In this document: positions 1 through 15,288 of the stretch, one piece after another | Position numbering within the stretch: position 1 is the first letter of the stretch | Layout: the number at the start of each line of letters is the position of its first letter | Virus record (IMG/VR): IMGVR_UViG_3300043447_000376 | Location: 1 to 15,288 of that record | DNA length: 15,288 nucleotides | Direction: 5' to 3' (one strand) | Source: a virus | Translations under genes and position numbers: made by a program | The notes under the pieces: model-generated | Databases searched by the model: none | What the model was told of the DNA's origin: nothing | What the model saw: only the letters and a program-made list of their open reading frames with translations

Positions 1-122
1 ATCTTGTATTTACATTGAAGTCAGCAAAGAAGTTTTCTGTATTTGATAGATTAATTAGTGACCACTTTTGTGGATCAAGCAATGAGGTTATTGATTTTTC
101 TGATTTCCAATAAGTTCCAGCA
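1..122. repeat. Left copy of an exact 122-bp terminal direct repeat (identical to 15167..15288). It implies a unit genome of 15,166 bp.
   Basis: Base-by-base comparison: atcttgtatttacattgaag...taagttccagca is present at both window ends. Confidence 0.95.
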
Positions 123-1999: not shown

Positions 2000-4900
2000 T
2001 AGGCTACCTCTCTTGTAGGATAAATTCCATCTATTTCAGTTGCTCTTAGCCATGCAGCCCAAGGACTTGTTAGATTGTACATTGAAATTGGATAATTAAA
2101 TGTATTTGTTGTAACAGTAATACCATTAATATAATTATTTGCCAACTTAATTGTTGCCTCCATTGGACCACCAGGAATAGTGATTCGTACACCAGCACTG
2201 TTAAATATTGCAGTTGCTACCATTATATCAGCGATTATGTTAGCAGGCGATGATATAGCTCCACCGTTCATTTGAGCAGATGCTGTCAATGAAGTTGCAT
2301 TAATAGAGATATTTCTAATTGCTGACACAGAAGCATCTGGTGACTCAGATTCAGCTAATGCCCAGTCAGCAGTGTAATTTACAGATGTGCTGGTTGTTGC
2401 AGCGGTTGCCAATGCAGTTGCTGTTATAGGAGATGTAGTAATAACCTTGTTGGTCTGACCAGGCATCATTCCATATAGATTAGAAACAAGTGTCTGAGAA
2501 GCAGAAGTCTTTGCCCAAATTACCTCGTCTACATAAATAATAGTATTTGTTGGTGCAACTGGCAATGATGTAGAGCCAAATGGAGTAATCAAACATCCAA
2601 CAGAAAGTCTTGGATGGTTGTTTGCCTCATCGTTAGCTGGTACAGAGACGGTACCATTGACTGTGGTTCCGTTGTATGTTCCAAGCTGTACTGTCATAAT
2701 ATCAACACCATCAATAAATAGGTTTACACGATTATTTGAGCCAGTGTGATCAAATGCCACTACAACGAAGTGTCTCAATCCATCAAATAGGTTATAGTTT
2801 GAAACTGTTGCCTGATCAATGTATGATCCAGAACCATTGTTAAACTGCAAGTGTAGTTTGTTCTGATATTGATACAAAATTACATGCTGGTTATCATAGT
2901 GTCCGTTTAGGTTCCAAAGAACTCTTAGACCAGTAGAATTATCTTCATCAGCTTTTCTAAACCAGAATGATGAATGGTAATTGTTTAGGCCAGTTCCCCA
3001 GGTATCATTGTATTCAGATTCCTTTAGGATTACTCCGTCAGTAATGTATGATGTTCCAGCTGTCTTGGCAGACTTACCGTTAATGCCAAAATCGGGGTTG
3101 ACGACTGTACCACCAATAGTTACAGGAGCAACTGCATAATCATTGTCTGAGCCATAGTCAAGGAATGAGTTGCTTCCATCAAAAGTTACATAACGATATG
3201 GATTTACATTTGCCATCACATAGTTGTAATATGTATCACTTAATGCAAAGGCATTGTTAGATTCAGCATACGCAATTAACGTTTCTGCAATGCTTGTATT
3301 TCCATATTTTGTAGAAGATTGAACAATTGTTGCAGAAGCAGTAAGCACATCTGCTGCAATATTGTTACTTACCCCAGCAACCACTGTAGCAGATACAATT
3401 AATGCAGAAGCTGTTGCAGCAGTTATTTCTGGAGTAGCATTTGAGTTGACAACAAAATTGTGTGTTCCAGATTGAACAGAAGCAGTCACTGGTGATGGGA
3501 AAATAGTCTTATCTGGAGAAAGAACATTTATAAATGAATAGTGATCAATAATTGTGCTATTGGATAATGCAGATCCATAAATGGCAAATTCATCAACGTA
3601 ATCAGCAGTTGCAATATTATCGCCAGATTGACCTGCAAAGAAATTATCCCATGTTGCTGATGTAAATGATGATGGATTAAGGGTGTCAGTAATAGATCCA
3701 GCAATAGATCCATTTAGATACCAAGATGCAACAAATTCGTTTGTTCCAGAACCTGGAGCAACTCTAACAACATAGTGATTCCAGTCATTGTTTTTATATA
3801 ATGCAGAATTATCTATATATGCTTCTGTTATATATTGACTACCGCCATCTTCAGGCCAATTCGGATTAGTTCTACTAACAAGTCTTGAAATTGTTATTCT
3901 TGATTTAGAAATAGATATATTTCCAAATCCTGCAACTACTTGATCTTCACCCTTAGACCAAACTTCAACGGTAAAGTTTCTTGATGCAACTAAATCTGAA
4001 ATGTCAGATGATGCAGTTGGGTAAATTCTAAAACGGTTTGGGGCATTTGTATAATTTCCAGTACCTGCCCAAGACAGACCAGCACCAACAAGCCCCATAT
4101 CTCCGCCAGATGCCTGTCCAGTGGACATTGTAGATCCTTTGTCATATGAAGCAATAGACATTGTTCCATAATTTGCACCAGTAGCTGTATCAAAATTAAA
4201 GTAGTAGACTGGATTAGATTGCTTAACTAATGCATAGTAACTTGGTGTTACATAAACAGTATGGTTACCAGATTCAGCAGATGCTGTGAGTGCTGCAATT
4301 GGAAGAACTGGTTCAATAATTTCTGCAGTAGCAGTCATTTCTAGTGCTGACCAAGATATATCAGATCCAGTAGAAATATCAACATTATTAATCATCTCAA
4401 TAGATGCTATGAGGGTTGTTGGACCAAGTACTTGTACATATTGTTCTGCCACAACTGCAATGTTTGTTGGCAAAATAGCATTAACTAAAATTGATGTAGT
4501 AATTTCAACATGATCTCCAGCTGTAACTGCAATAGTTGGGTCAGCAAGATCTGCTGAGGCAGTTATTGGGGTTGCTGTGTATGACACGTTTGTTGCATTA
4601 ATTCTTGCATCCCAAATCTGAGAAATTGCAGTAGCGTCAATTGCTGAATATGGAGCAATATAGTAATCAGAAATTTCAAATGTTGTCAATACGCCAGAGT
4701 CTGTGGTAGAACCTCTTGTTGAAGTTCCAAACTGGCTATATGCAGTACCAGTTGTTGTTGTTCCAAGTAGGTCATAAATAAAAACACCGTCTATATAAAC
4801 TTCAGTGTGATATCCAGAACCATCAATAAATGATCTTTGTGCAACATAGTGCCATTCCTGATCATCAACACGATTAGTAGAATATACTGTTCCACCAGTT

Positions 4901-5337
4901 GAAACAGTCAATGTAAGCTTTCCAAGATTTCCAGATGAGCCATTTAACTGAGTTGTCATCGCTCTACCCATACCACCAATCTGAGCGATCATTATATTTG
5001 TGTTATAGGTTTTTCCTGTTTCGTATGTAAAGTTTGTTTTAAACCAAAAACCCAATGAATAGTTACCATCTGTAAGCGGTACGTTAGCAGCAAGAACATT
5101 GCTAAACATTCTGTACATGGTAGTAGTCAAATCATTTGTGCCATTACCAACATTGATTGCCCAAGATCCGTCACCATGCACACCGCCAGTTGCATTTCTT
5201 ACTGGTGCTTCATTTGTAAGTGTAAATGTTGCAGTACCAGATGTACCGCTATTTGTAGGAGTAAGTGAATATGCACCATTAAATCTTACATAAGTTTCTG
5301 GTGAGTAGCTTAAAATTTTGTCTGATAAATTGCTCAT
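1999..5337 (-). CDS. 1112-aa large virion or tail protein with three LamG (Laminin_G_3-like) domains separated by Ala/Thr/Ser-rich linkers.
   Basis: ORF track entry. The LamG signature recurs three times: SLGFWFK...EWHYVA...YIDGV (aa 8-243), NDWNHYVVRVAPG...WYLNG...VDEFAIYGSALS (aa 366-600), and SSFWFRK...RHFVVVAFDH...LFIDGV...VDEVIWAK (aa 702-955). There is no SD, and a T7 run lies immediately upstream of the ATG. Confidence 0.85.
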   Translation of the reverse strand: MSNLSDKILSYSPETYVRFNGAYSLTPTNSGTSGTATFTLTNEAPVRNATGGVHGDGSWAINVGNGTNDLTTTMYRMFSNVLAANVPLTDGNYSLGFWFKTNFTYETGKTYNTNIMIAQIGGMGRAMTTQLNGSSGNLGKLTLTVSTGGTVYSTNRVDDQEWHYVAQRSFIDGSGYHTEVYIDGVFIYDLLGTTTTGTAYSQFGTSTRGSTTDSGVLTTFEISDYYIAPYSAIDATAISQIWDARINATNVSYTATPITASADLADPTIAVTAGDHVEITTSILVNAILPTNIAVVAEQYVQVLGPTTLIASIEMINNVDISTGSDISWSALEMTATAEIIEPVLPIAALTASAESGNHTVYVTPSYYALVKQSNPVYYFNFDTATGANYGTMSIASYDKGSTMSTGQASGGDMGLVGAGLSWAGTGNYTNAPNRFRIYPTASSDISDLVASRNFTVEVWSKGEDQVVAGFGNISISKSRITISRLVSRTNPNWPEDGGSQYITEAYIDNSALYKNNDWNHYVVRVAPGSGTNEFVASWYLNGSIAGSITDTLNPSSFTSATWDNFFAGQSGDNIATADYVDEFAIYGSALSNSTIIDHYSFINVLSPDKTIFPSPVTASVQSGTHNFVVNSNATPEITAATASALIVSATVVAGVSNNIAADVLTASATIVQSSTKYGNTSIAETLIAYAESNNAFALSDTYYNYVMANVNPYRYVTFDGSNSFLDYGSDNDYAVAPVTIGGTVVNPDFGINGKSAKTAGTSYITDGVILKESEYNDTWGTGLNNYHSSFWFRKADEDNSTGLRVLWNLNGHYDNQHVILYQYQNKLHLQFNNGSGSYIDQATVSNYNLFDGLRHFVVVAFDHTGSNNRVNLFIDGVDIMTVQLGTYNGTTVNGTVSVPANDEANNHPRLSVGCLITPFGSTSLPVAPTNTIIYVDEVIWAKTSASQTLVSNLYGMMPGQTNKVITTSPITATALATAATTSTSVNYTADWALAESESPDASVSAIRNISINATSLTASAQMNGGAISSPANIIADIMVATAIFNSAGVRITIPGGPMEATIKLANNYINGITVTTNTFNYPISMYNLTSPWAAWLRATEIDGIYPTREVA
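2222..2230 (-). promoter_or_regulatory. Internal copy of TGATATAAT, a possible promoter for the 666-aa gene.
   Basis: Plus-strand attatatca gives TGATATAAT on the minus strand, 223 nt upstream of ATG 1999 and inside the 3' end of the 1112-aa ORF. Confidence 0.35.
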
Positions 5338-5346
5338 AAAAAAAGA

Positions 5347-5568
5347 CTACGCCAATACAGACGTAGCCATTCCTCCTACCAAATTAAAGTCTGGGTTAAT
5401 TGCATTGAGGCTATGGCCATTAATGCTAAGTGGTGCTGGAGTGAAGCAAGACCAAGATGAGATTACCAAACTAACACCTGTGTTAATTTCAGTTTTAACA
5501 CAAGCAATCTCAATCATTTCAGCCTTTAGGCTGACTGAAAATGGTCCTGCTTCAACTCCAACGTTCAT
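5347..5568 (-). CDS. 73-aa hypothetical protein (MNVGVEAGPFSV...). It ends in a TAG that is in frame with the 1112-aa ORF.
   Basis: ATG 5568..5566 overlaps the upstream stop as TAATG. The frame is open for 73 codons. No homology was recognised. Confidence 0.5.
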   Translation of the reverse strand: MNVGVEAGPFSVSLKAEMIEIACVKTEINTGVSLVISSWSCFTPAPLSINGHSLNAINPDFNLVGGMATSVLA

Positions 5569-6002
5569 TATGCTACTGTGATCCTTACGATACCTGTAGC
5601 GTCCCAAGTAATAGTAAAGTTACCATTGCTTGAAGACTGGTCTGAACCAAAGTCAACATAACCAATAAGTGGCTTTGTTGCGTTAGTTGCAGGTGTTGCA
5701 TCGTAAATAACTGCATAGCGAGCAGTAATTGTAGACGAAGACCAAGTTACGTCATCAGCATCAAGTGTAATAACATTTGTTGACGAGTTGTAAGAGTTGG
5801 TCTTGTTTGCGAGGGTAGCTCCACCAGCGGTGTAGCCAGTTCCAGTAACTTCGTTTGCAACAACATCATCAAGATAGTTGTGTGCATCCTGGTCTGGAGT
5901 GTATGCGTTGGTGAGAAGAGCCACCTTAATGGTGTCTGTATCCCAGTCAATTTCTTTGTTTAGTGCCTGTGATAGGAACTGTCCGTATAGTTTGCTAGCC
6001 AT
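5568..6002 (-). CDS. 144-aa conserved phage structural protein, possibly a head decoration or head-proximal protein.
   Basis: ORF track entry. SD GGGGAGA lies 6 nt upstream. The gene sits immediately downstream of the capsid gene. The sequence pattern (IDWDTDTIKVALL...GTGYTAGGATL...DADDVTW...ITARYAVIY) looks like a family I have seen next to capsid genes, but I cannot name its function. Confidence 0.75.
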   Translation of the reverse strand: MASKLYGQFLSQALNKEIDWDTDTIKVALLTNAYTPDQDAHNYLDDVVANEVTGTGYTAGGATLANKTNSYNSSTNVITLDADDVTWSSSTITARYAVIYDATPATNATKPLIGYVDFGSDQSSSNGNFTITWDATGIVRITVA

Positions 6003-6015
6003 TCTCTATCTCCCC

Positions 6016-6918
6016 TTAAGCCGCAGCTGTCTTCTCAACGACTGCGAATGCATCAGCGTCAGCAACAGCGAATGCACGACGGATACGAGTCTTAAGAAGA
6101 ACTCCGTCAGTGTCAAACTGTGCGTCACGTGATACAACAGACTCTACGCCTGAGCGAACACCGTTGATCATCATGTTACGGTTACCAACAATAAGTAGTG
6201 GGTTACCAGTAGGTGCATCAGTTGCAGCAGCAGATGTAGCAGCACCGTATGAAACAACTAGTGGGTAACCGAATAGGCTTCCAGGAGTTGCTGCAATTGG
6301 GTTAGGAAGAACTAGCTGACCAGTTCCATCTACCATTCCACGAAGAGCTGCAAGCATCTTAGGGTGTGCAATGAATACAGTGTTAGCTGCATCAAAGTAC
6401 TGGCTGTCTTCTACGATACCAAGAGCAGCGTTGATGTCAGCGAATGACAAGTCTCCACCAGTCTGGATAAGGTTTGAACCAGAGTTTAGCTGTGATACTG
6501 CACGGTAAACAGAAGTGAACGGCTGACCGTCATCACCATCTGCAGCTGCAGTTACACCTAGACAAGCGTTGTCGAACTTACGTGCGAAACGGCTAGCCCA
6601 CTCAGACTTGTAAACAGAAAGTGTGTCTACTAGTGAGTCGTTTACGTCTTCCTCAGAAATGTGGAAGATCTTTGCATACTTCTTTGCTGTCAGTACGATC
6701 TCGTCAAGAGTAGCAGAAGCCTCTGGAATTGTTGCACCTTCGGCAACAACTTCTGGAGCATCTGCAACAAAGCGAGGGACTGACTTAGTGCGAGAAGCCA
6801 TTGCTTCTCTACGAGCAAACGATTCTACAGCAGAGTTTGCAAGAAGTGCCTGAATTACAGACGATCCTTGCTCTTCTAGGATGTAGCCGTTTGCCTCTGT
6901 TAGGTCAATACGAGCCAT
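6016..6918 (-). CDS. Major capsid protein (HK97-fold type), 300 aa.
   Basis: ORF track entry with a strong SD (AAGGAGA). It follows the scaffold gene, has the typical size, and contains motifs such as LTAKKYAKIFHISEEDVNDS. It has its own upstream TGATATAAT promoter. Confidence 0.8.
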   Translation of the reverse strand: MARIDLTEANGYILEEQGSSVIQALLANSAVESFARREAMASRTKSVPRFVADAPEVVAEGATIPEASATLDEIVLTAKKYAKIFHISEEDVNDSLVDTLSVYKSEWASRFARKFDNACLGVTAAADGDDGQPFTSVYRAVSQLNSGSNLIQTGGDLSFADINAALGIVEDSQYFDAANTVFIAHPKMLAALRGMVDGTGQLVLPNPIAATPGSLFGYPLVVSYGAATSAAATDAPTGNPLLIVGNRNMMINGVRSGVESVVSRDAQFDTDGVLLKTRIRRAFAVADADAFAVVEKTAAA

Positions 6919-7017
6919 TTTTTATCTCCTTAAGATAATTATTAGTTAATTTATGATGAATCGTCTAATTCACATGCTACTTAAAGCAAGCGTCCACCTG
7001 CAATAAAGTCTATGTAA

Positions 7018-7026
7018 ATTATATCA
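7018..7026 (-). promoter_or_regulatory. Extended -10 promoter TGATATAAT upstream of the capsid gene.
   Basis: Plus-strand attatatca lies in the 112-bp scaffold-capsid intergenic gap and is a member of the 6-copy motif family. Confidence 0.6.
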
Positions 7027-7030
7027 TCAT

Positions 7031-7480
7031 TTATTTAATTTTGCCCAAGATTTTTGCAGCCTGCATCTCGCTTGCTGAGAATCTTGTGCTTACTGTTGCC
7101 TGAATGGCAGCATCAGCCTGACCACCAACACGAAGCTTTGGATCAAATACTTCTGGTAGATCTTGCTTTAGTTCTTCAATCTGATCTTCAAATCCAATCA
7201 AATCAAAATTTTCATCAAGAGATAGATTTTCCATCTTTACGAACTTCATGACTCTTTGTGGGTCCTTAATTCCTTCAGATGCAATCTTTTGTGCAATCTT
7301 CTCTTGAATAAGTTTATTTGTGTAGACATTTATAGCCTGATCCTTGCTTGCAAGTACAGATTCTAGAGATTCCTTCTCTTCCCTGAATTTCTTAGCATCA
7401 TTCTTAGCACGGTCAAGGGCAGCAAGTACTGCCTTTGGATCTTCTATAACTGTTTCATTTTCCTGGATGTCATTTTCCAT
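7031..7480 (-). CDS. Scaffolding protein, 149 aa.
   Basis: Acidic, helical, coiled-coil-like sequence located between the portal and capsid genes. SD AGGAGG is present, and the start overlaps the portal stop as TAATG. Confidence 0.7.
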   Translation of the reverse strand: MENDIQENETVIEDPKAVLAALDRAKNDAKKFREEKESLESVLASKDQAINVYTNKLIQEKIAQKIASEGIKDPQRVMKFVKMENLSLDENFDLIGFEDQIEELKQDLPEVFDPKLRVGGQADAAIQATVSTRFSASEMQAAKILGKIK

Positions 7481-8820
7481 TAGTTGCCTCCTGTTTGTTC
7501 CATTATGACATTATTTGTATTGGTATTCTGAGACAAATCAGTCAGAGCATTCTCTGCAGCAACGATTCGCTGTGCGATTTCAAGGTCATACCCCATCTCA
7601 AGCAATACCTGTTCTAATGATACACCAACTACACGCTTCTTCACTGCAACTTCCCAAGCATCTAGGCTGTCCATAGATTCTACTGACTGCCACTTAACCT
7701 GGACATCAGAGTTGATTCCTTCTACCTTTAGAACAAATCTAAACATATCTCTCCATGTGTTACCAAATGAAATTTGGCGATCTTCTACCTTCTTAAGTAG
7801 TGGAGATTCTGCTGTACGAAGTGCTTCACCAGATGGCACGTTGCCAGTCTTTTCAAAATAGTGAAGTGGTGTATTTGTAATTGAAGCCATTGAGCGTACA
7901 AAGTCCTTAACTGGCTCTGTAAATACCTTGTGATCAGCTGGTGAGAATTCGCCAACCTTGCTAACGCCCTTTAGGTACCAAAGCTCTCCTGGACCATTTC
8001 TTAGCTTGCCAAGATTTTCAGCTTCTGCTGCATCATCATCAAAGTCTTCAAATTCTGCTGAGTTTCCGCCACCTGAAAGTGCATATCTTTGAGGAGCACC
8101 CTGGTAATCAACGGTAGTCATGTGAGTAACGATAAGCTTATTAATTGCATCCTGTGGACCAAACGCATCAGCGTGTTCTGGTCTACCGTACTGCTTTGCT
8201 GTTCTAAAGTGGAAGATTGGAACCTCTCCCCATGGATTGTCAATTGTTTCAACTAGCTTAAAGCTAGATGCAGACACAATGTTTTCAATTTCTCCAAATG
8301 CAGCATACTTTTCAATACGGTCTGGGTAGTACATGTTAAGCTTTGCAATCTTCTTGCCCTGGCTATCTTCTGTTTGCCAAAGCTTTGCACCAAAACGCTT
8401 AATACGAGGATTTTCGTCATCATAGATAACAACTGTAGTTAGTGGTGAGTTATAATCAATAGTTGTCTTACCATTTACATCAGTCCATACGATAGCATAG
8501 GCATTTACATATACTAGAGCACGGCGGTGAATCTCATCAGCATCCAGCACTAGATCGTTTGTTTCCCAAATTTTGTTGATTTCCTGATTTGCTGAGTCTG
8601 TTGTTCCAAAAATATTTGCAATCTCAAGACGGTTAAGTACTGAGTCAACAACGGTTCTTGCAAAGTTAAATCTAAAATCGCTACCTGCGTTTGTTAGTAG
8701 CTTGTACCATCTTTGGTTTGGGAATACCTCTGAGTTGGTACCTTCGTAGTATGCTTCTGCTGTAAGATAGTGATTCCTGCTATCTACGATTGCATCTATA
8801 GCCTTTTTAATATCAGACAT
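7480..8820 (-). CDS. Portal protein (SPP1 gp6-like size and N-terminal pattern), 446 aa.
   Basis: Lies directly downstream of the large terminase, with SD AAGGAGA. The N-terminal ...YLTAEAYYEGT... pattern is typical of portal families. Confidence 0.8.
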   Translation of the reverse strand: MSDIKKAIDAIVDSRNHYLTAEAYYEGTNSEVFPNQRWYKLLTNAGSDFRFNFARTVVDSVLNRLEIANIFGTTDSANQEINKIWETNDLVLDADEIHRRALVYVNAYAIVWTDVNGKTTIDYNSPLTTVVIYDDENPRIKRFGAKLWQTEDSQGKKIAKLNMYYPDRIEKYAAFGEIENIVSASSFKLVETIDNPWGEVPIFHFRTAKQYGRPEHADAFGPQDAINKLIVTHMTTVDYQGAPQRYALSGGGNSAEFEDFDDDAAEAENLGKLRNGPGELWYLKGVSKVGEFSPADHKVFTEPVKDFVRSMASITNTPLHYFEKTGNVPSGEALRTAESPLLKKVEDRQISFGNTWRDMFRFVLKVEGINSDVQVKWQSVESMDSLDAWEVAVKKRVVGVSLEQVLLEMGYDLEIAQRIVAAENALTDLSQNTNTNNVIMEQTGGN

Positions 8821-8821
8821 A

Positions 8822-10321
8822 TTATCTCCTTAAGTAATTTACCTGTTTTGCTTCTAGTTTCACTGCTTTATTGTCCAAAAAGTACAAAATGCCTGAAACT
8901 ACAGCATCTAGCACGTCTTCGTGGCTTACCTTTGGGAAAGACCACATCTGCTCTTCTAGCACTGGGAAATGGGCTGTGTGCCTTACCTTACCCTGTTGAT
9001 AGAAGTTCAAAGCCTTACCTGCACGGATCTGCTTTGATAGGTGTTGAGATTTTGATCTATATTTGGCAGGAACGTTCTTAAAAACATCCTTCCATAGGTC
9101 ACCACCTTGGTTAACCTCAACATAAACCACCCCAACGCCAAATGTGTCTACTAGATAGGCTACTCTTTCAGCCATATCTGAAGGAGACATTTTGACTTGT
9201 TCTGCATGTCTGACATAAACATTCGTTTTACCGTTTTCATCAATACCTTTTGACAAAACTGCAATTCCTGTATAGTCAGAAACCTTATTTTTTGTTACTG
9301 CTGGGTCAATAGAGATAATGGTGTTTCCATAGTCTTCTATTTCTTCTATAATTATATCTTCATTTGTCCAGAATGTGCCATCTGTGTTGACTGGACGGTT
9401 CATGTAGTTCTTAGCAAAGTCACGAAGGTGTCTCTGGCTCTGAAGCCACTCTAGTGACCATTTCTCAGGCCATACAGATCTTTCTGTACCATCATCGTTC
9501 TGCATGATAGCTGGATAGTAGTGAGCATTTACATTCTGCTCATCTACCCAATTAAGTTCAATATCATCATATCCTTCTGCCTTCTTGCGGAATTGGTCCA
9601 TTACAGAGTTAGGCATAGTAGTGGTACCCACAAAGATCATACGTGCGTATATATTCATAGGTGCGATATCATCAAATACTGTGTTCTTCTGCTGCCCTGC
9701 TTGATATTCAGAGTAGTTCTTTTCACCCTTTTCAATATCGTCAAGAATAATTAGGTCTGGACGCTGTCCAAATACCTTCTTACCAAGCGAGTTGGTGTCA
9801 ATACCATTAGCGTCAAAGATAAAGTCGTTAGACTGGATAATACGCCACGCATTGCTTGCCATAGCCCTTCCAGAAGACGCTACAAGCTTAGGCTTGCATA
9901 GATCAGGATAGTCAGCTTGAAGCAATTCGTTGGATTCAAGTTCGTTTTTAAATGTCATCAAGTGAGTTTCGGCCTGGGATGCAGCGTCTGAGAAAGCGGC
10001 GATAAACTTCACATGTCCATGACAGGCAGCCCACATTGGCAAAATAAGGAAAATCCAAGTAGATTTACCACATTCACGTGGAGCGATAAAGGCATCTCTA
10101 TTCTCCTTTGGATTCTTAGGCTTGCTAATCCATGATTTGCCATATTCTGCTAGATCAACATGGAATTCAGACAATGTTATCTGTCCATGAGCATTCATAA
10201 GGTGATGTGGCAAGTAAGTTAAGGCGAAAAGTAGAGGATCGTACTTTGTTAGCTCTTTTCTACCCTCAGAAAAAGTTAAAAGCTCAACTGGAACGTTCTC
10301 TAGCACCTCTTCTATGTTCAT
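8822..10321 (-). CDS. terL: Terminase large subunit, 499 aa.
   Basis: Walker A APRECGKST (about aa 80-88), Walker B LIILDDIE, and a C-terminal nuclease-type ISIDPA motif. SD AAGGA is present, and the gene sits immediately upstream of the portal. Confidence 0.9.
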   Translation of the reverse strand: MNIEEVLENVPVELLTFSEGRKELTKYDPLLFALTYLPHHLMNAHGQITLSEFHVDLAEYGKSWISKPKNPKENRDAFIAPRECGKSTWIFLILPMWAACHGHVKFIAAFSDAASQAETHLMTFKNELESNELLQADYPDLCKPKLVASSGRAMASNAWRIIQSNDFIFDANGIDTNSLGKKVFGQRPDLIILDDIEKGEKNYSEYQAGQQKNTVFDDIAPMNIYARMIFVGTTTMPNSVMDQFRKKAEGYDDIELNWVDEQNVNAHYYPAIMQNDDGTERSVWPEKWSLEWLQSQRHLRDFAKNYMNRPVNTDGTFWTNEDIIIEEIEDYGNTIISIDPAVTKNKVSDYTGIAVLSKGIDENGKTNVYVRHAEQVKMSPSDMAERVAYLVDTFGVGVVYVEVNQGGDLWKDVFKNVPAKYRSKSQHLSKQIRAGKALNFYQQGKVRHTAHFPVLEEQMWSFPKVSHEDVLDAVVSGILYFLDNKAVKLEAKQVNYLRR

Positions 10322-10605
10322 TATTGTCCTTTGTTGATATGGTCAATAAGCAATTTGTAAATCATGTCAATCTTTTTGTCCATTTCTTTACGAATTACTT
10401 CAGCTTGAGCCATTTGGCTATTAAGATCTCCAAATTTACCCTCAAGACGATTGACCTGGTCCTTGATTGAGCTACCCCCATTTGGTCTAAGCTCTTTTAG
10501 ATATTCTTCTATCTTCTTGAATAGCATTCTTATCCCTGCTACTAGAGCTGCACCTACTGCACCTATCATAGATACAATGGCTGCAATGATTTCTGGATTG
10601 TTCAT
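10321..10605 (-). CDS. 94-aa protein with an N-terminal transmembrane helix and a coiled-coil tail, a holin-like or membrane-anchor candidate.
   Basis: The hydrophobic segment IIAAIVSMIGAVGAALVAGI is followed by a charged helical region. Both ends are TAATG-coupled. Confidence 0.65.
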   Translation of the reverse strand: MNNPEIIAAIVSMIGAVGAALVAGIRMLFKKIEEYLKELRPNGGSSIKDQVNRLEGKFGDLNSQMAQAEVIRKEMDKKIDMIYKLLIDHINKGQ

Positions 10606-10775
10606 TATATCCCATACCCCATTTTGAATTTGCTGGAAATATTATTTTGAGACAGCAAAATTAGCAAATCAGAAACAATCTTAGTAGTGGGTACCCCCCT
10701 AGCCACAAAGCCTGACAAATTATCCAAATTGACATTGCCAAATAGTTTCATATTCGTTATCAAATTGTTATACAT
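10605..10775 (-). CDS. Small hypothetical protein. It is 56 aa from ATG 10775, or up to 72 aa from the track start at 10823.
   Basis: The frame is stop-free between the TerS-like gene and the next gene, and its stop overlaps the next start as TAATG. No start candidate has a good SD. Confidence 0.4.
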   Translation of the reverse strand: MYNNLITNMKLFGNVNLDNLSGFVARGVPTTKIVSDLLILLSQNNISSKFKMGYGI

Positions 10776-11238
10776 TGTTATCAATGTTTTCCTTTGTCTT
10801 CTCATTACGAGCTTTGGCTTCATTCAATAGATCTATAATAGCCAAATCAGTATTATCCTTATTTCTCTGTTCATTGATAGCAGTTGACTTACCTTCAATA
10901 AGATTGATAGTCTGAATAGCCTTATGTACAGCATTAGCCAATTTGTTTAGTTCATCAGGATCTAGTGTACTTTCCATTAGTGTTTCAACACATCTATCTA
11001 GCACTGTCTGTGCAGCTATTAGCTTTTCTTTATCTGAATAGAATACCCTGAGATCTACCGCCATTTTTGCCAGGGTATCCATAGTTGGCAAATCTACATT
11101 TCTTTGCTCAAACCATTTCTTAGCTGTGTGATAGCTCTTAGGATATCCCAAATTGCGGATAGCTGGTCCAATACCCATTTCTTGAGCAACTTCAATAAAA
11201 TTCTCAATTTGTTCTTCTGTGAATGCTGAATATCCCAT
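10768..11238 (-). CDS. Putative terminase small subunit or DNA-binding protein, 156 aa.
   Basis: SD GGAGG is present. The N-terminus is HTH-like (EEQIENFIEVAQEMGIGPAIRNLGY) and is followed by a helical oligomerisation-like region. The gene lies upstream of terL. Confidence 0.55.
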   Translation of the reverse strand: MGYSAFTEEQIENFIEVAQEMGIGPAIRNLGYPKSYHTAKKWFEQRNVDLPTMDTLAKMAVDLRVFYSDKEKLIAAQTVLDRCVETLMESTLDPDELNKLANAVHKAIQTINLIEGKSTAINEQRNKDNTDLAIIDLLNEAKARNEKTKENIDNNV

Positions 11239-11310
11239 TATTTGATACCTCCAATTTGGAAATTTGACATTACGGCGTACGTTTGGTAGGATCCAGGTAT
11301 AAATAACATA

Positions 11311-11508
11311 TTATAGATCTGTCCAAAATTCAGGTTCTTCATCATCTTCTGGTTCATCAAATAATCCTTCTATAATTTTACTCAAATTGTCATCTACCAA
11401 CATAGTAATACCAATGTCTGTGTTAGATGTCTTATTCATAAAAGATATCACAAATGAGAGTTGTTTGTTCTTATACTCTAGATCTTTAGCATATGGGAAT
11501 AGTAACAT
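11311..11508 (-). CDS. 65-aa protein with a highly acidic C-terminus (EPEDDEEPEFWTDL), function unknown.
   Basis: ORF track entry. It is the first ORF after the promoter at 11557..11565. The SD is weak. Confidence 0.5.
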   Translation of the reverse strand: MLLFPYAKDLEYKNKQLSFVISFMNKTSNTDIGITMLVDDNLSKIIEGLFDEPEDDEEPEFWTDL

Positions 11509-11556
11509 TGTTATCTCAATTCCCTCCGAAAATCACCTAGTTTATACATCATTGCA

Positions 11557-11565
11557 ATTATATCA
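11557..11565 (-). promoter_or_regulatory. Extended -10 promoter TGATATAAT.
   Basis: Plus-strand attatatca lies just downstream of the terminator at 11576..11621 and upstream of the 65-aa/TerS/TerL gene string. Confidence 0.6.
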
Positions 11566-11575
11566 TACTTTATTC

Positions 11576-11621
11576 AAGAATGGAAAAAGGGGAAGGCTAA
11601 GAGGTGACCAAAACCTTCCCC
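11576..11621 (-). terminator. Rho-independent terminator.
   Basis: On the minus strand, GGGGAAGG (11621..11614) is followed by a 17-nt loop and CCTTCCCC (11596..11589), then TTTTTCCATTCTT. The 8-bp stem is GC-rich and is followed by a U-run. Confidence 0.75.
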
Positions 11622-11692
11622 AACTCCTGAGCCCTATGGTGGGTATGAGAGACATCAGGCTCATACTCACTAGGCAACCAGTGAGATACTTA

Positions 11693-11701
11693 ATTATATC
11701 A
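11693..11701 (-). promoter_or_regulatory. TGATATAAT motif whose TGA is the stop codon of the HNH gene.
   Basis: Plus-strand attatatca. The motif is followed by three hairpins and the terminator at 11576..11621. Confidence 0.45.
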
Positions 11702-12325
11702 CTTATTCTTTGCTTTGGACTTCTTAGTAATATTAGTCCAGCAAGGCTTACAATAGCTCAAATGACCATCAGGAGAACCTGATCTCTTACCAAATTGAGA
11801 TATTGGTTTCTTGTCATTACACTTTGCACAAGTCTTGCTATCTCTATGGATGGTTGGACCATTGACCATACGCTCATCATACTTAGCTCTATTCATAGTG
11901 TTCATGCATTGCTTACAGTATGTCTGTCTTCCATCAGATAGCCTTGATGACTTATGGAAATCATCTATATGCTTTGATATATTACATTTAATACATAGCT
12001 TATTCATACTTAAATCTTTTCTACTCAAATAATCTTTGTTTGCCCTGGTTTTTTTAATGTGACATGACTTACAAAGTGTCTGAAGGTTGCTAGGCTTATT
12101 GTTAGACTTGTTACCATCTATGTGATCTACTTCAAGCGATCCCTTATTTTCTGGCATTTCATAACAAATCTCGCATTGGTTTTTCTTAAATTTTCTAGCT
12201 TCAACAATGCATTTTTTACATGCTGTACCAAATACCTGTTGACCTTTAGTGTTTCTTCCTTTTGATAGAGTTGGATATTGTCCACACTCACACATTGTTC
12301 TTACTAGTAACCCTGTTGTTGCCAT
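11699..12325 (-). CDS. HNH endonuclease with several CxxC zinc-ribbon modules, 208 aa.
   Basis: HNH core: EVDHIDGNKSNNKPSNLQTLCKSCH. It is flanked by CECG...CKKC and CEIC, plus two C-terminal repeats of the form CxKCN..K.I..F.K.....DG....YCKxC. SD AGGAGA lies 8 nt upstream. Confidence 0.85.
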   Translation of the reverse strand: MATTGLLVRTMCECGQYPTLSKGRNTKGQQVFGTACKKCIVEARKFKKNQCEICYEMPENKGSLEVDHIDGNKSNNKPSNLQTLCKSCHIKKTRANKDYLSRKDLSMNKLCIKCNISKHIDDFHKSSRLSDGRQTYCKQCMNTMNRAKYDERMVNGPTIHRDSKTCAKCNDKKPISQFGKRSGSPDGHLSYCKPCWTNITKKSKAKNK

Positions 12326-12449
12326 TTCTTATTTCTCCTGTTATCATTCCGATTTCTTCTAAAATACCGTCGCAATGCTCTGTGCTTGCATCTAGAAGAA
12401 CTGTTCTGCATTTTTCACACCAAAAGACTGTCGTCTCTATATCTTCCAC
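12288..12449 (-). CDS. Possible 53-aa small protein (GTG start) with a CEKC...HC half zinc-ribbon.
   Basis: AAAGGAG lies 6 nt upstream of GTG 12449. It would be the first ORF after the promoter at 12492..12500. It overlaps the HNH start by 38 nt and is too short to appear in the ORF track. Confidence 0.3.
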   Translation of the reverse strand: MEDIETTVFWCEKCRTVLLDASTEHCDGILEEIGMITGEIRNGNNRVTSKNNV

Positions 12450-12491
12450 CCATTACTCCTTTGGTTATAAGTCCCCTTAAGACCTATAATA

Positions 12492-12500
12492 ATTATATCA
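12492..12500 (-). promoter_or_regulatory. Extended -10 promoter TGATATAAT. A second perfect TATAAT lies at 12515..12522 (TGTATAAT).
   Basis: Plus-strand attatatca in an AT-rich stretch, about 40 nt upstream of the first SD of the HNH operon. Confidence 0.6.
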
Positions 12501-12559
12501 TATCTTTTTAACATATTATACATTTTTTATCTATTTCTTATTTATTTTAGATATAGTTT

Positions 12560-12860
12560 TATTCCCCCCCAGTGCCTAGGAACATGTTCCGCTGGTGAGT
12601 TTTTCTTCCTGATTACGATATCAACCTCCCAGTCACACGTTGATACCCTTGGGGCTACATACCAAATATATGTAGATCTTTAATTATTTTGCTTGTCAAG
12701 GGCTTGGGAAAGACGGTAAACCAATAAAATCGGACAAATCAGGACATGCCAGAAGTTTGCCTCTTGACCACCGCTGTTGAATTAGGTAAAGCGTACCCTT
12801 ACTTCTCGTACTTCCCTGTGGCTGGGAGCTTGTGCTTGCTACGAGAGTGCTTTCTTGTTG
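12560..12860. other. Structured non-coding region, a candidate ncRNA and/or replication or packaging origin.
   Basis: No ORF on either strand. Several stem-loops are present: 12619-12625/12639-12645, 12655-12661/12669-12675, and nested 12804-12810/12840-12846 with 12811-12815/12824-12828. There is also the 12-bp palindrome GGAACATGTTCC and a C7 tract. Confidence 0.4.
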
Positions 12861-12867
12861 CTTTATA

Positions 12868-12876
12868 AGTATATCA
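12868..12876 (-). promoter_or_regulatory. Variant motif TGATATACT (extended -10-like) embedded in the inverted repeat AAGTAT-N3-ATACTT.
   Basis: Plus-strand agtatatca. The palindromic arms are 12867..12872 and 12876..12881. It lies directly downstream of the 12887..12929 hairpin. Confidence 0.45.
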
Positions 12877-12886
12877 TACTTTTATG

Positions 12887-12929
12887 ACAAATGCAAAGAG
12901 GACCTAGTAGCAAGCACGTTACTAGGTCC
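12887..12929 (-). terminator. Probable intrinsic terminator at the end of the structural operon.
   Basis: Perfect 10-bp stem (12900..12909 pairs with 12920..12929) with a 10-nt loop. On the minus strand it is followed by CTCTTTGCATTTGT, a moderate U-tract. Confidence 0.55.
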
Positions 12930-12969
12930 CCTAAATGACAACACACCAGGTCATAAACCTAGTACATCT

Positions 12970-12978
12970 ATTATATCA
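12970..12978 (-). promoter_or_regulatory. TGATATAAT motif whose TGA is the stop codon of the 94-aa gene.
   Basis: Plus-strand attatatca. The predicted start near 12963 would give a transcript of about 75 nt ending at the 12887..12929 hairpin. Confidence 0.45.
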
Positions 12979-13260
12979 GATTTTATAAATTGCTTTGAGA
13001 GCTGAGGTGGCAATCTTAGCAGTCATATATGCTTGTTCCATAATTTGATTGCCAGCTTCTACCGTTTCACTCATAAATGACTGATAAGGCTGTGGATCAA
13101 CAGGCTGCCAGCCATCTGATGGATCTGCCTGAGCATTTTTCTCAAAATTTGGGATAAAAGTATCATTTAGGACAGTTTCCTGACCCTCATTAACAATCAT
13201 TCCCTGCATTACAGCTATTGCTTCATTTAGTGCAGATTCTATAATGCCAAATGGATCCAT
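12976..13260 (-). CDS. 94-aa hypothetical protein, the last gene of the structural operon.
   Basis: ORF track entry. Its start overlaps the upstream stop as TAATG. Confidence 0.6.
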   Translation of the reverse strand: MDPFGIIESALNEAIAVMQGMIVNEGQETVLNDTFIPNFEKNAQADPSDGWQPVDPQPYQSFMSETVEAGNQIMEQAYMTAKIATSALKAIYKI

Positions 13261-13589
13261 TACAATTCACCCTGGAACTTTGTAGCCTTCATTCTGTAGC
13301 TCTCAATATTATTAAAAGCATTTAGAACTGGTTCTAGACCAACAATAAGCCAGGATGTATCGTCAAGAATAAGGTTGTTCTCTGAGTCCTTTATATCTTT
13401 AATTACTGAATTGATTGGAATTGGCTGTTCGCAACGAATTCCCATTCTACCGCTGATATCAAGACCAGCAGTAATTGGAACGGTACCAACAAAGTAGTAC
13501 TTAGTTACTTCAGTGCTTCCAGTCTTTTCAACAACAGGCTTGTAAAAATCACCAGAGTATTTGTGTCTAGCATATGCCATTGGCTTCAT
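13260..13589 (-). CDS. 109-aa putative head-closure or head-tail joining protein.
   Basis: I prefer ATG 13589 (MKPMAYARH...) to the track start at 13604, because GGAGAA lies 9 nt upstream and the ATG overlaps the upstream stop as TAATG. The function call rests on position after the adaptor and on size only. Confidence 0.6.
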   Translation of the reverse strand: MKPMAYARHKYSGDFYKPVVEKTGSTEVTKYYFVGTVPITAGLDISGRMGIRCEQPIPINSVIKDIKDSENNLILDDTSWLIVGLEPVLNAFNNIESYRMKATKFQGEL

Positions 13590-13981
13590 TAGATGGTTCT
13601 CCAATCAGAACTATCAGTCAATTGTGACACTTTACCAGTTTTAATTGATCTTGAACGCATAAAACTCAATTTTGCACAAATCATTACTGCCATTGGGGCA
13701 ATGAAAGGAGAAATTGAATCCCCTTGCTTGAATGAAGTATAAGCGTCATTCTGACCAGTTGTAGAAACTGCCATTTGTTCAAAAACAATGTCTTCGTTGT
13801 TCAACATGTACGCAGCTTGATATGCTACTGCACGTTTTAGTACTTCTATGTCTTTTGTATTTGCGACTTCCGACTCAAATTTACCAACATAGGCTTCAAT
13901 TGCATATTGTGCACGTTGAACTAGATCAGCTTTAACGATCTTGCCAGTAATTGTTTTTACTTCAGTTATATTAGCAAACAT
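13589..13981 (-). CDS. 130-aa head-tail connector or adaptor (gp6-like).
   Basis: I prefer ATG 13981 (MFANITEVKTITG...) because it follows AAAGGAGAAGAA. The N-terminal pattern ITEVK....V.ADLVQRAQYAIEAYVG resembles head-tail connector families. Confidence 0.6.
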   Translation of the reverse strand: MFANITEVKTITGKIVKADLVQRAQYAIEAYVGKFESEVANTKDIEVLKRAVAYQAAYMLNNEDIVFEQMAVSTTGQNDAYTSFKQGDSISPFIAPMAVMICAKLSFMRSRSIKTGKVSQLTDSSDWRTI

Positions 13982-13994
13982 TTCTTCTCCTTTC

Positions 13995-15098
13995 CTATTC
14001 TGCCAACCATTGTAGTCCAAGCCATGTCATTGACAAGACTGGGATTTGTTGTGTTGGGTAAATTTCTTCAGATTCAGTTGGGTATAGGTCAGACTGGTAA
14101 TCTGTGTTATTTCTAACCGTCTCTGAAGTAATAATACCATTGGATGAATTGGTTGGTGCCTGAATTAGTGGGCCACCACCACCATTTGTAGGAATTACCT
14201 GACCATATGGAGTGACATCCTTAATATTAATTCTTCTTGGTGCTCTATTTAATCTACTTGTTGAATACTGCCAAGCTCTTGTTGATGTGGTTTCATTAAC
14301 AACATCATTTGGAACAACCTGAATTGTTGCCTTGTTGTATTCTTCACGACTCATTGTTAGTGAATCCTCAACACAGTTTACAAAGATTTTTCCATTTATT
14401 GGATAGTTTCCAAGCAATTGACCATCATGAACAACAATTGTTGTAGCGTAATCATCAAATTCATTAACAACTAGATTTGATCCATGGTAATGATTATTTG
14501 CAAGACTTGTTACAACAGTTCCAGCAATCACATTATTAGGAGCAACTGCATGAATGTTTTTTGTTCCACGAGCATTTTGTCTAAATCCAGGAATAGAATC
14601 ATTCTCTGTTGACTGTCTTAGTGCTAGAGATGGAATTATAAACTCATTACCTTCTTGCAAACCAAATTGACGATAAGAGTATTTTGCGTGATATTCTTCA
14701 TAGTCATACGTGTTTTCTGGAAGATAGTTAATAAACTCAGCAAGCACCCATGTTTCCTTGTCAGTAAGTCCAGGAATTGCTGTGTCAAGGTGGTATGAAT
14801 TCTGTCTGTGAGTATCAAAATATCTTTCAGCTGGTTCATCAAACTGGAATGGATTTACTACAGCAGCTCTTCCATCGCCAATCTCAACCTCTTGAGGTAT
14901 AGAAGAGTATTGCTTTACAATTCCAAGATCTTCTGCAAGTTTTGGACTTGAAACAAATAGGCTTGCACCATTTGCAGCAGCAAGCTTAAGGGATTCAAGG
15001 AATTCTGCATATCTATTTAGTATTTCTGACTGTGGGTCATTTGGGAACATCTCAAAGATTTGTTCATTGTACTCTGGATAGTTAACAAAAGTGACCAA
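13995..15098 (-). CDS. 367-aa putative tail-associated structural protein. Its frame stays open upstream to 15164 and is in frame with the 666-aa ORF through a TAG.
   Basis: ORF track entry (TTG start with no SD). The first ATG is at 15050, also without an SD. The ORF ends in TAG. No family was recognised. Confidence 0.7.
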   Translation of the reverse strand: MVTFVNYPEYNEQIFEMFPNDPQSEILNRYAEFLESLKLAAANGASLFVSSPKLAEDLGIVKQYSSIPQEVEIGDGRAAVVNPFQFDEPAERYFDTHRQNSYHLDTAIPGLTDKETWVLAEFINYLPENTYDYEEYHAKYSYRQFGLQEGNEFIIPSLALRQSTENDSIPGFRQNARGTKNIHAVAPNNVIAGTVVTSLANNHYHGSNLVVNEFDDYATTIVVHDGQLLGNYPINGKIFVNCVEDSLTMSREEYNKATIQVVPNDVVNETTSTRAWQYSTSRLNRAPRRINIKDVTPYGQVIPTNGGGGPLIQAPTNSSNGIITSETVRNNTDYQSDLYPTESEEIYPTQQIPVLSMTWLGLQWLAE

Positions 15099-15164
15099 GT
15101 CATAACTAGATAGATCAATATCAGAGTTAATATCAATAAATCTGTCTTCGCCACGGTAGTTTTT

Positions 15165-15288
15165 CTATCTTGTATTTACATTGAAGTCAGCAAAGAAGTT
15201 TTCTGTATTTGATAGATTAATTAGTGACCACTTTTGTGGATCAAGCAATGAGGTTATTGATTTTTCTGATTTCCAATAAGTTCCAGCA
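15165..15288 (-). CDS. Duplicate C-terminal 40 codons plus the TAG stop of the 666-aa gene, the same gene as 1..1999 seen across the junction.
   Basis: 15167..15288 equals 1..122. The reading frame ...FADFNVNTR is followed by TAG at 15167..15165. Confidence 0.85.
   Translation of the reverse strand, partial: AGTYWKSEKSITSLLDPQKWSLINLSNTENFFADFNVNTR
15167..15288. repeat. Right copy of the 122-bp terminal repeat, either circular-assembly overlap or terminal redundancy.
   Basis: Identical to 1..122. The junction lies inside an ORF, which favours a circular or permuted genome over fixed physical ends. Confidence 0.95.

Follow-up and report, generated by a model that had tools for sequence, protein, structure and literature searches.

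The 15,288-nucleotide (nt) stretch of viral DNA considered here (IMG/VR record IMGVR_UViG_3300043447_000376, positions 1 to 15,288; hereafter the window) contains a non-coding gap at positions 12450-12975, and we are nearly certain that this gap holds a real structured RNA, read from the minus strand, whose conserved core spans ~299 nt. This RNA very probably belongs to a previously undescribed family with two domains and two pseudoknots. The gap as a whole is best explained as the promoter, terminator and leader control region of a satellite-type phage resembling the Streptomyces satellite MiniFlayer. A preliminary description of the window had proposed the gap as an origin or primer-RNA-type control region, as a packaging (pac/cos) site, or as a novel structured non-coding RNA of about 300 nt transcribed from a promoter motif at 12868. 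It is the last of these that the sequence analysis bears out: the promoter, here called P2 and of the sigma-70-type extended -10 kind, is present and conserved within the clade of the window, and the RNA that would follow it has the properties described below.

The evidence for the RNA is comparative. Over its whole length we recognise nine covariation-supported helices and two pseudoknots (Table 1); ~97% of the alignment cells pair, 41 of the 59 pairs have changed on both sides, and the nine helices are kept via compensatory changes in at least seven lineages. Within the 5' domain, which comprises the four helices Palpha, Pbeta, Pgamma and Pa and in which Pa crosses Pbeta to make a pseudoknot, pairing extends to 97.1% of cells and two-sided changes affect 16 of 25 pairs, where slid controls yield 0-6. 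The 3' domain, aligned by hand registration from 13 sequences of seven lineages and containing five helices (Hx, the C-strand/G-run pairing, Hy, Hz and the pseudoknot), has 97.4% of cells paired and two-sided changes at 25 of 34 pairs, compared with 4-7 such changes and 35-44% pairing in its slid controls; its covariation score of 0.716 falls to 0.06-0.07 when the partners are slid, and none of 500 shuffles scored as high. A compensatory change is also found inside the clade of the window, GUCAAG/CUUGAC being replaced by GUUAUG/CAUAAC. Plain MAFFT misaligned the variable hairpins, so the helices were re-registered by hand between invariant anchors, with the register held by N padding. The slid controls, together with stem sequences that are wholly different between lineages, argue that the covariation signal is real. 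Invariant across the aligned lineages are the loops GUGUGAC..GAG and CUAGGNAC and a G run of six or more; these lineages had been retrieved with a pattern that itself demanded the two loop motifs. Single-sequence folding energy is unremarkable (z = +0.44 for the minus strand, -0.84 for the plus strand), and the covarying helices were recovered neither in the minimum-energy fold nor by RNAalifold on two near-identical sequences. The beyond-chance evidence for the RNA is thus conservation and covariation, not thermodynamics.

The 299-nt core is the best-conserved DNA of the locus, being 95.7-96.7% identical among close relatives, compared with 84-94% for the flanking genes and 81-92% for the flanking non-coding DNA. 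The gap had been described as free of open reading frames (ORFs) on either strand; to the letter this does not hold, as small plus-strand ORFs of 40 and 57 amino acids (aa) overlap it, but its substance does, since the relatives differ in the gap by insertions or deletions of 1, 1, 2, 5 and 7 nt and by paired substitutions. One might, then, suppose that the gap is a non-functional remnant, either a decayed gene, for example of the winged helix-turn-helix (wHTH) initiator discussed below, or a chance structure in an AT-rich spacer. Sister genomes do keep a protein gene at this position, and the folding energy is, as noted, no better than that of shuffled sequences. We nevertheless regard a remnant as extremely improbable: a tblastn comparison of the wHTH proteins with the gap finds no similarity, the core surpasses the genes on either side of it in conservation, and homologs occur in unrelated large phages. 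At the level of sequence, the remnant reading is contradicted by the extensive covariation and by the conservation of the core.

Three routes led to relatives of the element: the adjoining 94-aa protein, the motif GTGTGAC...GAG / CTCA...GCG / CTAGG.AC, and the phage records of GenBank. The RNA turned out to be present, unannotated, in the satellite Mulchroom, in its helper phage MulchMansion (at 16767-17081) and, besides these, in ~16 distinct Streptomyces phages of large size (120-135 kb) that include Jay2Jay, Mildred21, Yaboi and Mandalore; StarPlatinum carries it with a different 5' domain. In Mulchroom the RNA is complete and lies in a 1-kb gap that precedes the endonuclease VII gene; relative L046 has it upstream of an acetyltransferase-like ORF. 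Where the RNA is not simply left blank in the large-phage records, it is covered by a small "hypothetical protein" ORF. Such ORFs are annotated over the 3' domain as gene 45 of Jay2Jay (record 18398-18718), as gene 42 of Targaryen and in Warpy, and an ORF at 13755-13919 of locus L042 would encode 54 aa across the pseudoknot region; these are probably mis-calls.

Searches for a known family came back empty. Rfam 15 (Infernal) reported nothing in the gap at E <= 1 when run on the whole window, and on the gap alone at E <= 10 solely Srn266 (25.9 bits, where the threshold is 63) and tp2, each of them on the plus strand; on seven homologous loci it reported tRNAs alone, and on the related loci (eight in all) nothing relevant. 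ARAGORN found no tRNA or tmRNA gene in the window, as the preliminary description had anticipated. The gap has no blastn match among 50,697 phage records, and the link to cultured phages came via the TerL protein and the motif pattern. Two pattern scans of 185,579 species-representative bacterial and archaeal genomes gave no match and then six, all six of them chance occurrences that lack the Hy stem. Literature searches returned no description of the RNA, and it is not mentioned in either of the two satellite-phage papers (PMC10690885; PMC13587820).

The gap itself runs from the TGA stop (12978-12976, minus strand) of the last structural gene, which encodes 94 aa, to the GTG start at 12449 of a 53-aa zinc-ribbon ORF, also on the minus strand, whose homologs are present in relatives (W-C-x2-C ... 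EIGW). After re-annotation it is the sole long non-coding stretch of the window, the next gaps measuring 190 nt (11509-11698) and 112 nt (6919-7030). Its inventory, as first listed, stands up well: the "three or four" promoter motifs are three extended -10 promoters, all on the minus strand; there are more than five stem-loops where at least five had been counted; the 12-bp perfect palindrome GGAACATGTTCC is hairpin Hz of the RNA; and the C7 tract is the RNA's G7 run. All relatives share the arrangement of P1, TGnTATAAT being placed at the homologous gene's stop, and have a hairpin, of different sequence, in the place of the one that opens the P1 transcript. The terminator that had been noted, T1, keeps its stem pairing in the closest relative with changes on both arms (GGACCUAGUA/UACUAGGUCC versus GGACUCAGUA/UACUGGGUCC) and is predicted to end both a genome-long operon and the ~70-nt P1 transcript. 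An attenuator at this place was considered and rejected: the 5' ACUAGGU of the P1 transcript and the 5' arm of T1 are complementary in the window, yet the closest relative lacks this match. From the spacing of P2, its transcript would start at ~12862.

Table 1. Features of the gap and its borders (window coordinates; paired strands are separated by a slash)
Feature	Position	Strand	Particulars
Promoter P1	12970-12978	minus	extended -10 TGATATAAT; overlaps the TGA stop of the last structural gene
Small hairpin at start of P1 transcript	12946-12962	minus	CUAGGU-UUAUG-ACCUGG; from sequence
Intrinsic terminator T1	12889-12931	minus	stem 12929-12920/12909-12900, loop ACGUGCUUGC, tail UCUUUGCAUUU
Promoter P2 of the RNA	12868-12897	minus	-35 TTTGCA 12897-12892, 18-nt spacer, extended -10 TGATATACT 12876-12868
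RNA core, ~299 nt, ending in G7	~12862-12564	minus	from conservation and covariation
RNA 5' domain	12676-12862	minus	Palpha 12822-12817/12772-12767; hairpin 12802-12786; Pbeta 12766-12761/12702-12697; Pgamma 12752-12731; Pa 12714-12709/12681-12676
RNA 3' domain as a whole, with Hx and C-strand	12564-12675	minus	Hx 12675-12655; C-strand 12654-12650 pairs with UGGGG 12571-12567
RNA 3' domain, Hy	12647-12639/12625-12617	minus	invariant loop GUGUGACNNNNGAG 12638-12626
RNA 3' domain, pseudoknot	12632-12630 and 12628-12626 with 12594-12592 and 12599-12597	minus	Hy loop to Hy-Hz linker
RNA 3' domain, Hz	12590-12579	minus	12-bp palindrome GGAACATGTTCC; from sequence and covariation
RNA 3' domain, end	12579-12564	minus	invariant CUAGGNAC 12579-12572; G7 run 12570-12564 (C7 on plus strand)
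A/T-rich tract after the G run	12501-12563	minus	TATCTA...TAGATA inverted half-sites; from sequence
Promoter P3	12492-12500	minus	extended -10 TGATATAAT; serves the zinc-ribbon/HNH/terS transcription unit; conserved in clade
mRNA 5' hairpin and zinc-ribbon start	12449-12489	minus	hairpin 12489-12465, ribosome-binding site AAAGGAG 12462-12456, GTG 12449; from sequence

Generic promoter and terminator scans perform at chance level genome-wide and do not single out the gap. The specific motif TGATATAMT, by comparison, matches the window seven times, always on the minus strand (2222-2230, 7018-7026, 11557-11565, 11693-11701, 12492-12500, 12868-12876 and 12970-12978; three of the seven in the gap), where 0.62 matches are expected and seven were reached in none of 200 shuffles; they probably account for every host-type extended -10 promoter of the genome. 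The 60 nt richest in AT anywhere in the genome, 12485-12544 (GC 10%), lie 3' of the G run, and the A/T-rich tract of Table 1 is to be read either as P3's upstream sequence or as a candidate DNA-unwinding element. The minus strand has another promoter-small RNA-terminator unit at 11585-11701, with TGATATAAT over the HNH stop, two hairpins and a terminator GGGGAAGG...CCUUCCCC-UUUUU; it is laid out like P1-T1 and like three units of the corresponding slot in MiniFlayer, and just past it a further TGATATAAT promoter (11565-11557) serves the 65-aa/terS genes.

The genome around the gap places these features in context. Positions 1-122 of the window are an exact copy of 15167-15288, which makes the window a circular assembly with a genome length of 15,166 bp. 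Scans of all its ORFs against Pfam and PHROG identify, on the minus strand, an HNH nuclease (12325-11699), a TerS-like protein, TerL (10321-8822; of the classical type, Terminase_6C and phrog_38), an SPP1-type portal, a scaffold, an HK97-type capsid and a 1112-aa protein. The scans bring up no gene for replication, be it for a primase, a polymerase, an initiator or otherwise, in line with the lack of recognisable replication genes noted before. The plus-strand ORFs 201-434, 594-800 and 1130-1348 are spurious: the same DNA is covered by a minus-strand gene of ~1050 aa, running from 1999 across the assembly junction to 13995 and homologous to a 1076-aa protein of a relative, so the whole genome is transcribed in one direction. 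Because every gene lies on one strand, the GC skew, which had been put forward as a guide to an origin or pac site and was computed, is uninformative. The window TerL is closest to those of two Streptomyces satellites, Mulchroom (OQ784832; 54% identity) and MiniFlayer (OQ357865; 46%), and seven further window proteins match MiniFlayer in the same gene order (p144 at 72%, the adaptor at 47%), giving 34-72% identity over eight proteins. Synteny and similarity extend over terS, terL, portal, scaffold, capsid, gp6, the giant protein and the adaptor; replication genes are reported to be absent from both satellites as well, and both have a non-coding slot after the adaptor-side genes and before a nuclease gene. 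The satellites are reported to carry capsid and packaging genes without replication genes and to need ~130-kb BE-cluster helpers (PMC10690885). From homology and gene content, the window is most likely an uncultured, low-GC (38%) relative of these satellites, from which it differs in GC content (47-51% in the two), in its uncultured source, in having two giant genes and in its minimal right arm. The preliminary description was silent on the single coding strand, on the satellite-phage type and on helpers with the same RNA.

The neighbourhood of the terminase genes makes a pac/cos site, read by the neighbouring HNH, TerS and TerL proteins, worth weighing. The gap lies ~125 nt upstream of the zinc-ribbon/HNH/terS/terL block, and HNH nucleases assist cos cleavage in HK97-like phages. 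The terminal repeats of MiniFlayer and Mulchroom, however, start 167 and 33 nt upstream of terS, respectively, several genes away from the equivalent gap, and the 122-nt terminal overlap of the window also lies outside the gap. Furthermore, the compensatory changes, which affect stems and a loop-to-linker pseudoknot alike, are those of a strand folded on itself and not of a duplex site for protein binding, and the same element sits ~17 kb inside helper genomes whose terminal repeats measure 11-12 kb (PMC10690885). A packaging site in the gap, as earlier proposed, is therefore very improbable. A packaging RNA of the phi29 kind has no counterpart here either, since the window has the classical TerL and the SPP1-type portal in place of a phi29-like packaging ATPase and connector.

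Turning to what the RNA does, we think it probable that it is a co-transcribed 5' leader. In the window, in the helpers, in Mulchroom and in L046 the RNA is always co-oriented with and upstream of genes, and always stands after a terminator and its own promoter. Helper phages have it in a divergent intergenic region, after one or two promoters, a ~150-nt RNA, a terminator and the RNA's own promoter (TTGAAATAAT); some 25-35 nt past its 3' end follow a small ORF and then genes for a hydrolase, an HNH protein and a tRNA. Behind the G run a terminator is missing from every lineage. With none there and an ORF so close behind in the helpers, RNA polymerase from P2 would read on through the RNA into the genes downstream, which would make the RNA their leader. 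As for the main function, we lean, with somewhat less than even confidence, toward an action in cis on transcription or on the mRNA. The RNA might act during its synthesis, on the elongating polymerase in the manner of put- or nut-type read-through, or afterwards, on the fate of the transcript, and the leader could thereby tie the packaging and right-arm genes of the satellite to a factor, from the host or the helper, on which the helper's own copy draws as well. A cis action fits both the constant place at the head of an operon and the unrelated genes downstream. The positional arrangement is that of put-type elements: P2, then the RNA, then an operon with a strong internal terminator at 5368-5345. 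This terminator (minus strand; a stem of 9 bp and then T7) separates the head genes from the 1112-aa gene, whose ATG at 5337 is too close for an intervening promoter, so that the distal genes depend on read-through. The helpers' unit directly upstream of the RNA is also unannotated; it consists of a TTGACA...TATATC promoter, an internal promoter-like site, ~150 nt of hairpins and a strong terminator (L053 4790-4975 in MulchMansion, L054 400-590 in Yaboi, L042 14110-14290 on the minus strand in Jay2Jay).

Several points weigh against such a cis-acting leader. P3 lies between the RNA and the first gene in the clade of the window, so the operon is not strictly dependent on P2. Sister satellites with a wHTH gene express the same downstream operon without the RNA, which is unexpected for an essential leader, and MiniFlayer has no such RNA in its slot. 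The RNA is far bigger and more intricate than known antitermination RNAs, and its 5' and 3' domains are swapped among relatives. Its two ends and the read-through are read off the sequence. Lastly, the hand registration of both helix alignments favours the structure that we name, for which reason we rely on the slid controls; these and the invariant anchors limit the bias.

What sister genomes keep in the same slot deserves attention. All 15-kb relatives keep P1, the hairpin and T1; the contents after T1 vary. Some carry the RNA described here. L036, L040, L044 and L015 have the same 3' domain with another 5' domain. Other structured RNAs of ~300 nt occupy the slot in L014 (4690-4985), L016 (6425-6715) and L034 (4410-4705), which form one type with 10 compensatory pairs among the three sequences, and separately in L029 (4282-4811), whose 5' module is common with L044 and L036 and whose 3' end is different; none of these RNAs has an Rfam match. 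L004-L013 have, as the first gene in place of the RNA, a 140-150-aa wHTH protein matching HTH_36 and the PHROG families of replication initiation protein, O-like initiator and DnaD-like loader, for which tblastn finds no match in cultured phages. The wHTH gene contains a 22-nt repeat in two direct copies and one inverted (L004 6731-6774; L008 6618-6683; L011 3933-4029), followed by an A-rich stretch of AAAGATAAA repeats. By analogy this looks like an origin inside the initiator gene, the layout of lambda O and its ori: the N-terminal wHTH, the internal repeats and the A-rich stretch within the coding sequence are common to both. The likeness concerns the sister genomes only, whose protein is just 140-150 aa, whereas the window has no such gene and its gap no such repeats, nor any iteron-like ones. 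MiniFlayer has neither the RNA nor a wHTH gene in its slot, which holds three units of promoter, hairpin and terminator and has no blastn match in any other phage; the sharing of the RNA with a helper is consequently established for Mulchroom and MulchMansion only.

Let us suppose, then, that the slot is a replication slot in the window as well. A folded transcript from P2 might form, with its purine-rich 3' end (G7 plus the A-rich tract), a persistent RNA-DNA hybrid at the AT-rich DNA, to be processed by host or helper enzymes into a primer for leading-strand synthesis, as in ColE1 RNA II, mitochondrial LSP/CSBII or the promoter-dependent origins of T4 and T7; with a version of the helper's element, a satellite without replication genes would be copied at an initiator-free origin. 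The sister slot with its initiator-like gene and lambda-like repeats speaks for this, as do the lack of an initiator or any other replication gene in the window, the position of the AT-richest DNA behind the G run in the only sizeable non-coding DNA, and the missing terminator. The G run, moreover, is longer than pairing demands in every lineage, and the published relatives rely on helpers for replication (PMC10690885), one of which has the RNA in common with its satellite. Against it stand the helper phages, in which an ordinary ORF, not an AT-rich tract, follows the RNA, and in which the same RNA heads ordinary operons of 130-kb genomes that have replication genes of their own. A primer would not need nine conserved helices and invariant loops. 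The promoter scan finds no promoter-like site on the plus strand of 12450-12975 from which an antisense regulator could be made, the other RNA types in the slot lack the G run, MiniFlayer does without RNA and wHTH gene alike, and the GC skew gives no guidance. Arrays of A-tracts and AGATAA comparable to the window tract are present in relatives and were first taken for origin repeats; they are located 40-90 nt upstream of promoters in both kinds of genome and may be promoter upstream elements, which makes them weak evidence. On balance, we hold the RNA-primed origin to be the chief competitor of the cis-acting leader, though less likely than not.

A further reading is a stable RNA that acts away from its own operon. 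The structured part of the RNA might be cut from an early transcript and work in trans, as free RNA or as a ribonucleoprotein, and might sequester or redirect a host factor (a defence sensor, a ribonuclease or RNA polymerase, for instance), from which helper and satellite would both gain; it would then stand with the large ornate phage RNAs GOLLD and ROOL. Size, pseudoknots and invariant loops are typical of RNAs that bind a partner, the modular domain swaps resemble the variable halves of ornate RNAs, the promoter is strong and apparently within an early region, and the element is found in viral sequence only, the species-representative genomes having given no true match. Yet in no lineage does the RNA have its own terminator, it is always directly upstream of co-oriented genes, and no protein partner is conserved next to it: the genes downstream are a zinc ribbon and HNH, endonuclease VII, small ORFs and a hydrolase, or the acetyltransferase-like ORF. 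We therefore consider a stable trans-acting RNA rather unlikely.

Irrespective of the molecular details, the RNA bears on how satellites of this class engage their helpers. Bacterial satellite viruses without replication genes were described only in 2023 (deCarvalho et al., PMC10690885), and for the way in which they plug into their helpers the RNA offers a concrete coupling candidate: it is present in a satellite (Mulchroom) and in its helper (MulchMansion), in the slot that sister satellites use for an initiator gene. It is conceivable, and we put it forward with due reserve, that the RNA is a replication or helper-coupling module of the class, an RNA-based element of origin specificity common to parasite and helper. 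Under this scenario, a folded RNA copied from the helper genome would stand where sister satellites keep a lambda-O-like initiator and its repeats, and through it a genome without replication genes could be recognised and copied by helper or host enzymes. The cultured Streptomyces satellite/helper system makes the RNA unusually testable. The findings also add to the RNA catalogue a family of ~300 nt with two pseudoknots that is absent from Rfam, and they fill a region that is blank, or wrongly called as a small ORF, in the sequence records of ~17 distinct large Streptomyces phages; finally, they show 15-kb relatives of the satellites to occur widely across metagenomes.

Two observations concern the genes rather than the RNA. 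The ~1050-aa wrap-around gene has an in-frame TAG at 15165-15167 (minus strand), where the closest relative has Trp (TGG), dividing it into ORFs of 666 and 367 aa; the codon is located exactly at the inner edge of the 122-nt terminal overlap and may reflect a genuine nonsense variant, an error of sequencing or a codon that is read through. Relatives encode the counterpart of the window's 208-aa HNH protein (11699-12325) in two adjacent but separate genes, one for an HNH protein of ~106 aa and the other for a Cys-rich product of ~103 aa (L004 7089-7409 and 7414-7725, for example); the window gene is therefore a fusion.

Among known RNA systems, ColE1 RNA II and the mitochondrial LSP/CSBII primer are promoter-driven, folded and terminator-less transcripts, as the window RNA is predicted to be, and have in common with it a conserved G run before a candidate DNA-opening site and the lack of an element-encoded initiator. 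They differ in that pseudoknots and invariant loops are unneeded by primers and that an ORF follows at once in the helpers, and, for ColE1, in that the opposite strand of the gap lacks a promoter of the RNA I type; hybrid formation and priming by the window RNA are proposed by analogy with these systems. Closer in position are the HK022 put RNA, the Bacillus EAR and lambda nut, cis-acting RNAs that directly follow a promoter, stand first in a long operon and need no gene-specific logic, which fits the variable genes downstream of the window RNA. The put RNA is ~70 nt, with two stem-loops that bind RNA polymerase in cis, and EAR is ~120 nt; the window RNA, at ~299 nt with nine helices and two pseudoknots, has no sequence or Rfam similarity to them, and sister genomes do without it. 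With GOLLD and ROOL (Rfam; cryo-EM study PMC12286853) it has in common being a large, pseudoknotted, phage-borne RNA of unassigned function and partly variable architecture. It gives no covariance-model match to either, has about one half to one third of their size, and is probably a promoter-proximal leader where GOLLD and ROOL are free-standing genes near tRNAs. Large structured RNAs carried by phages are a known category, to which the window RNA very probably adds a new family.

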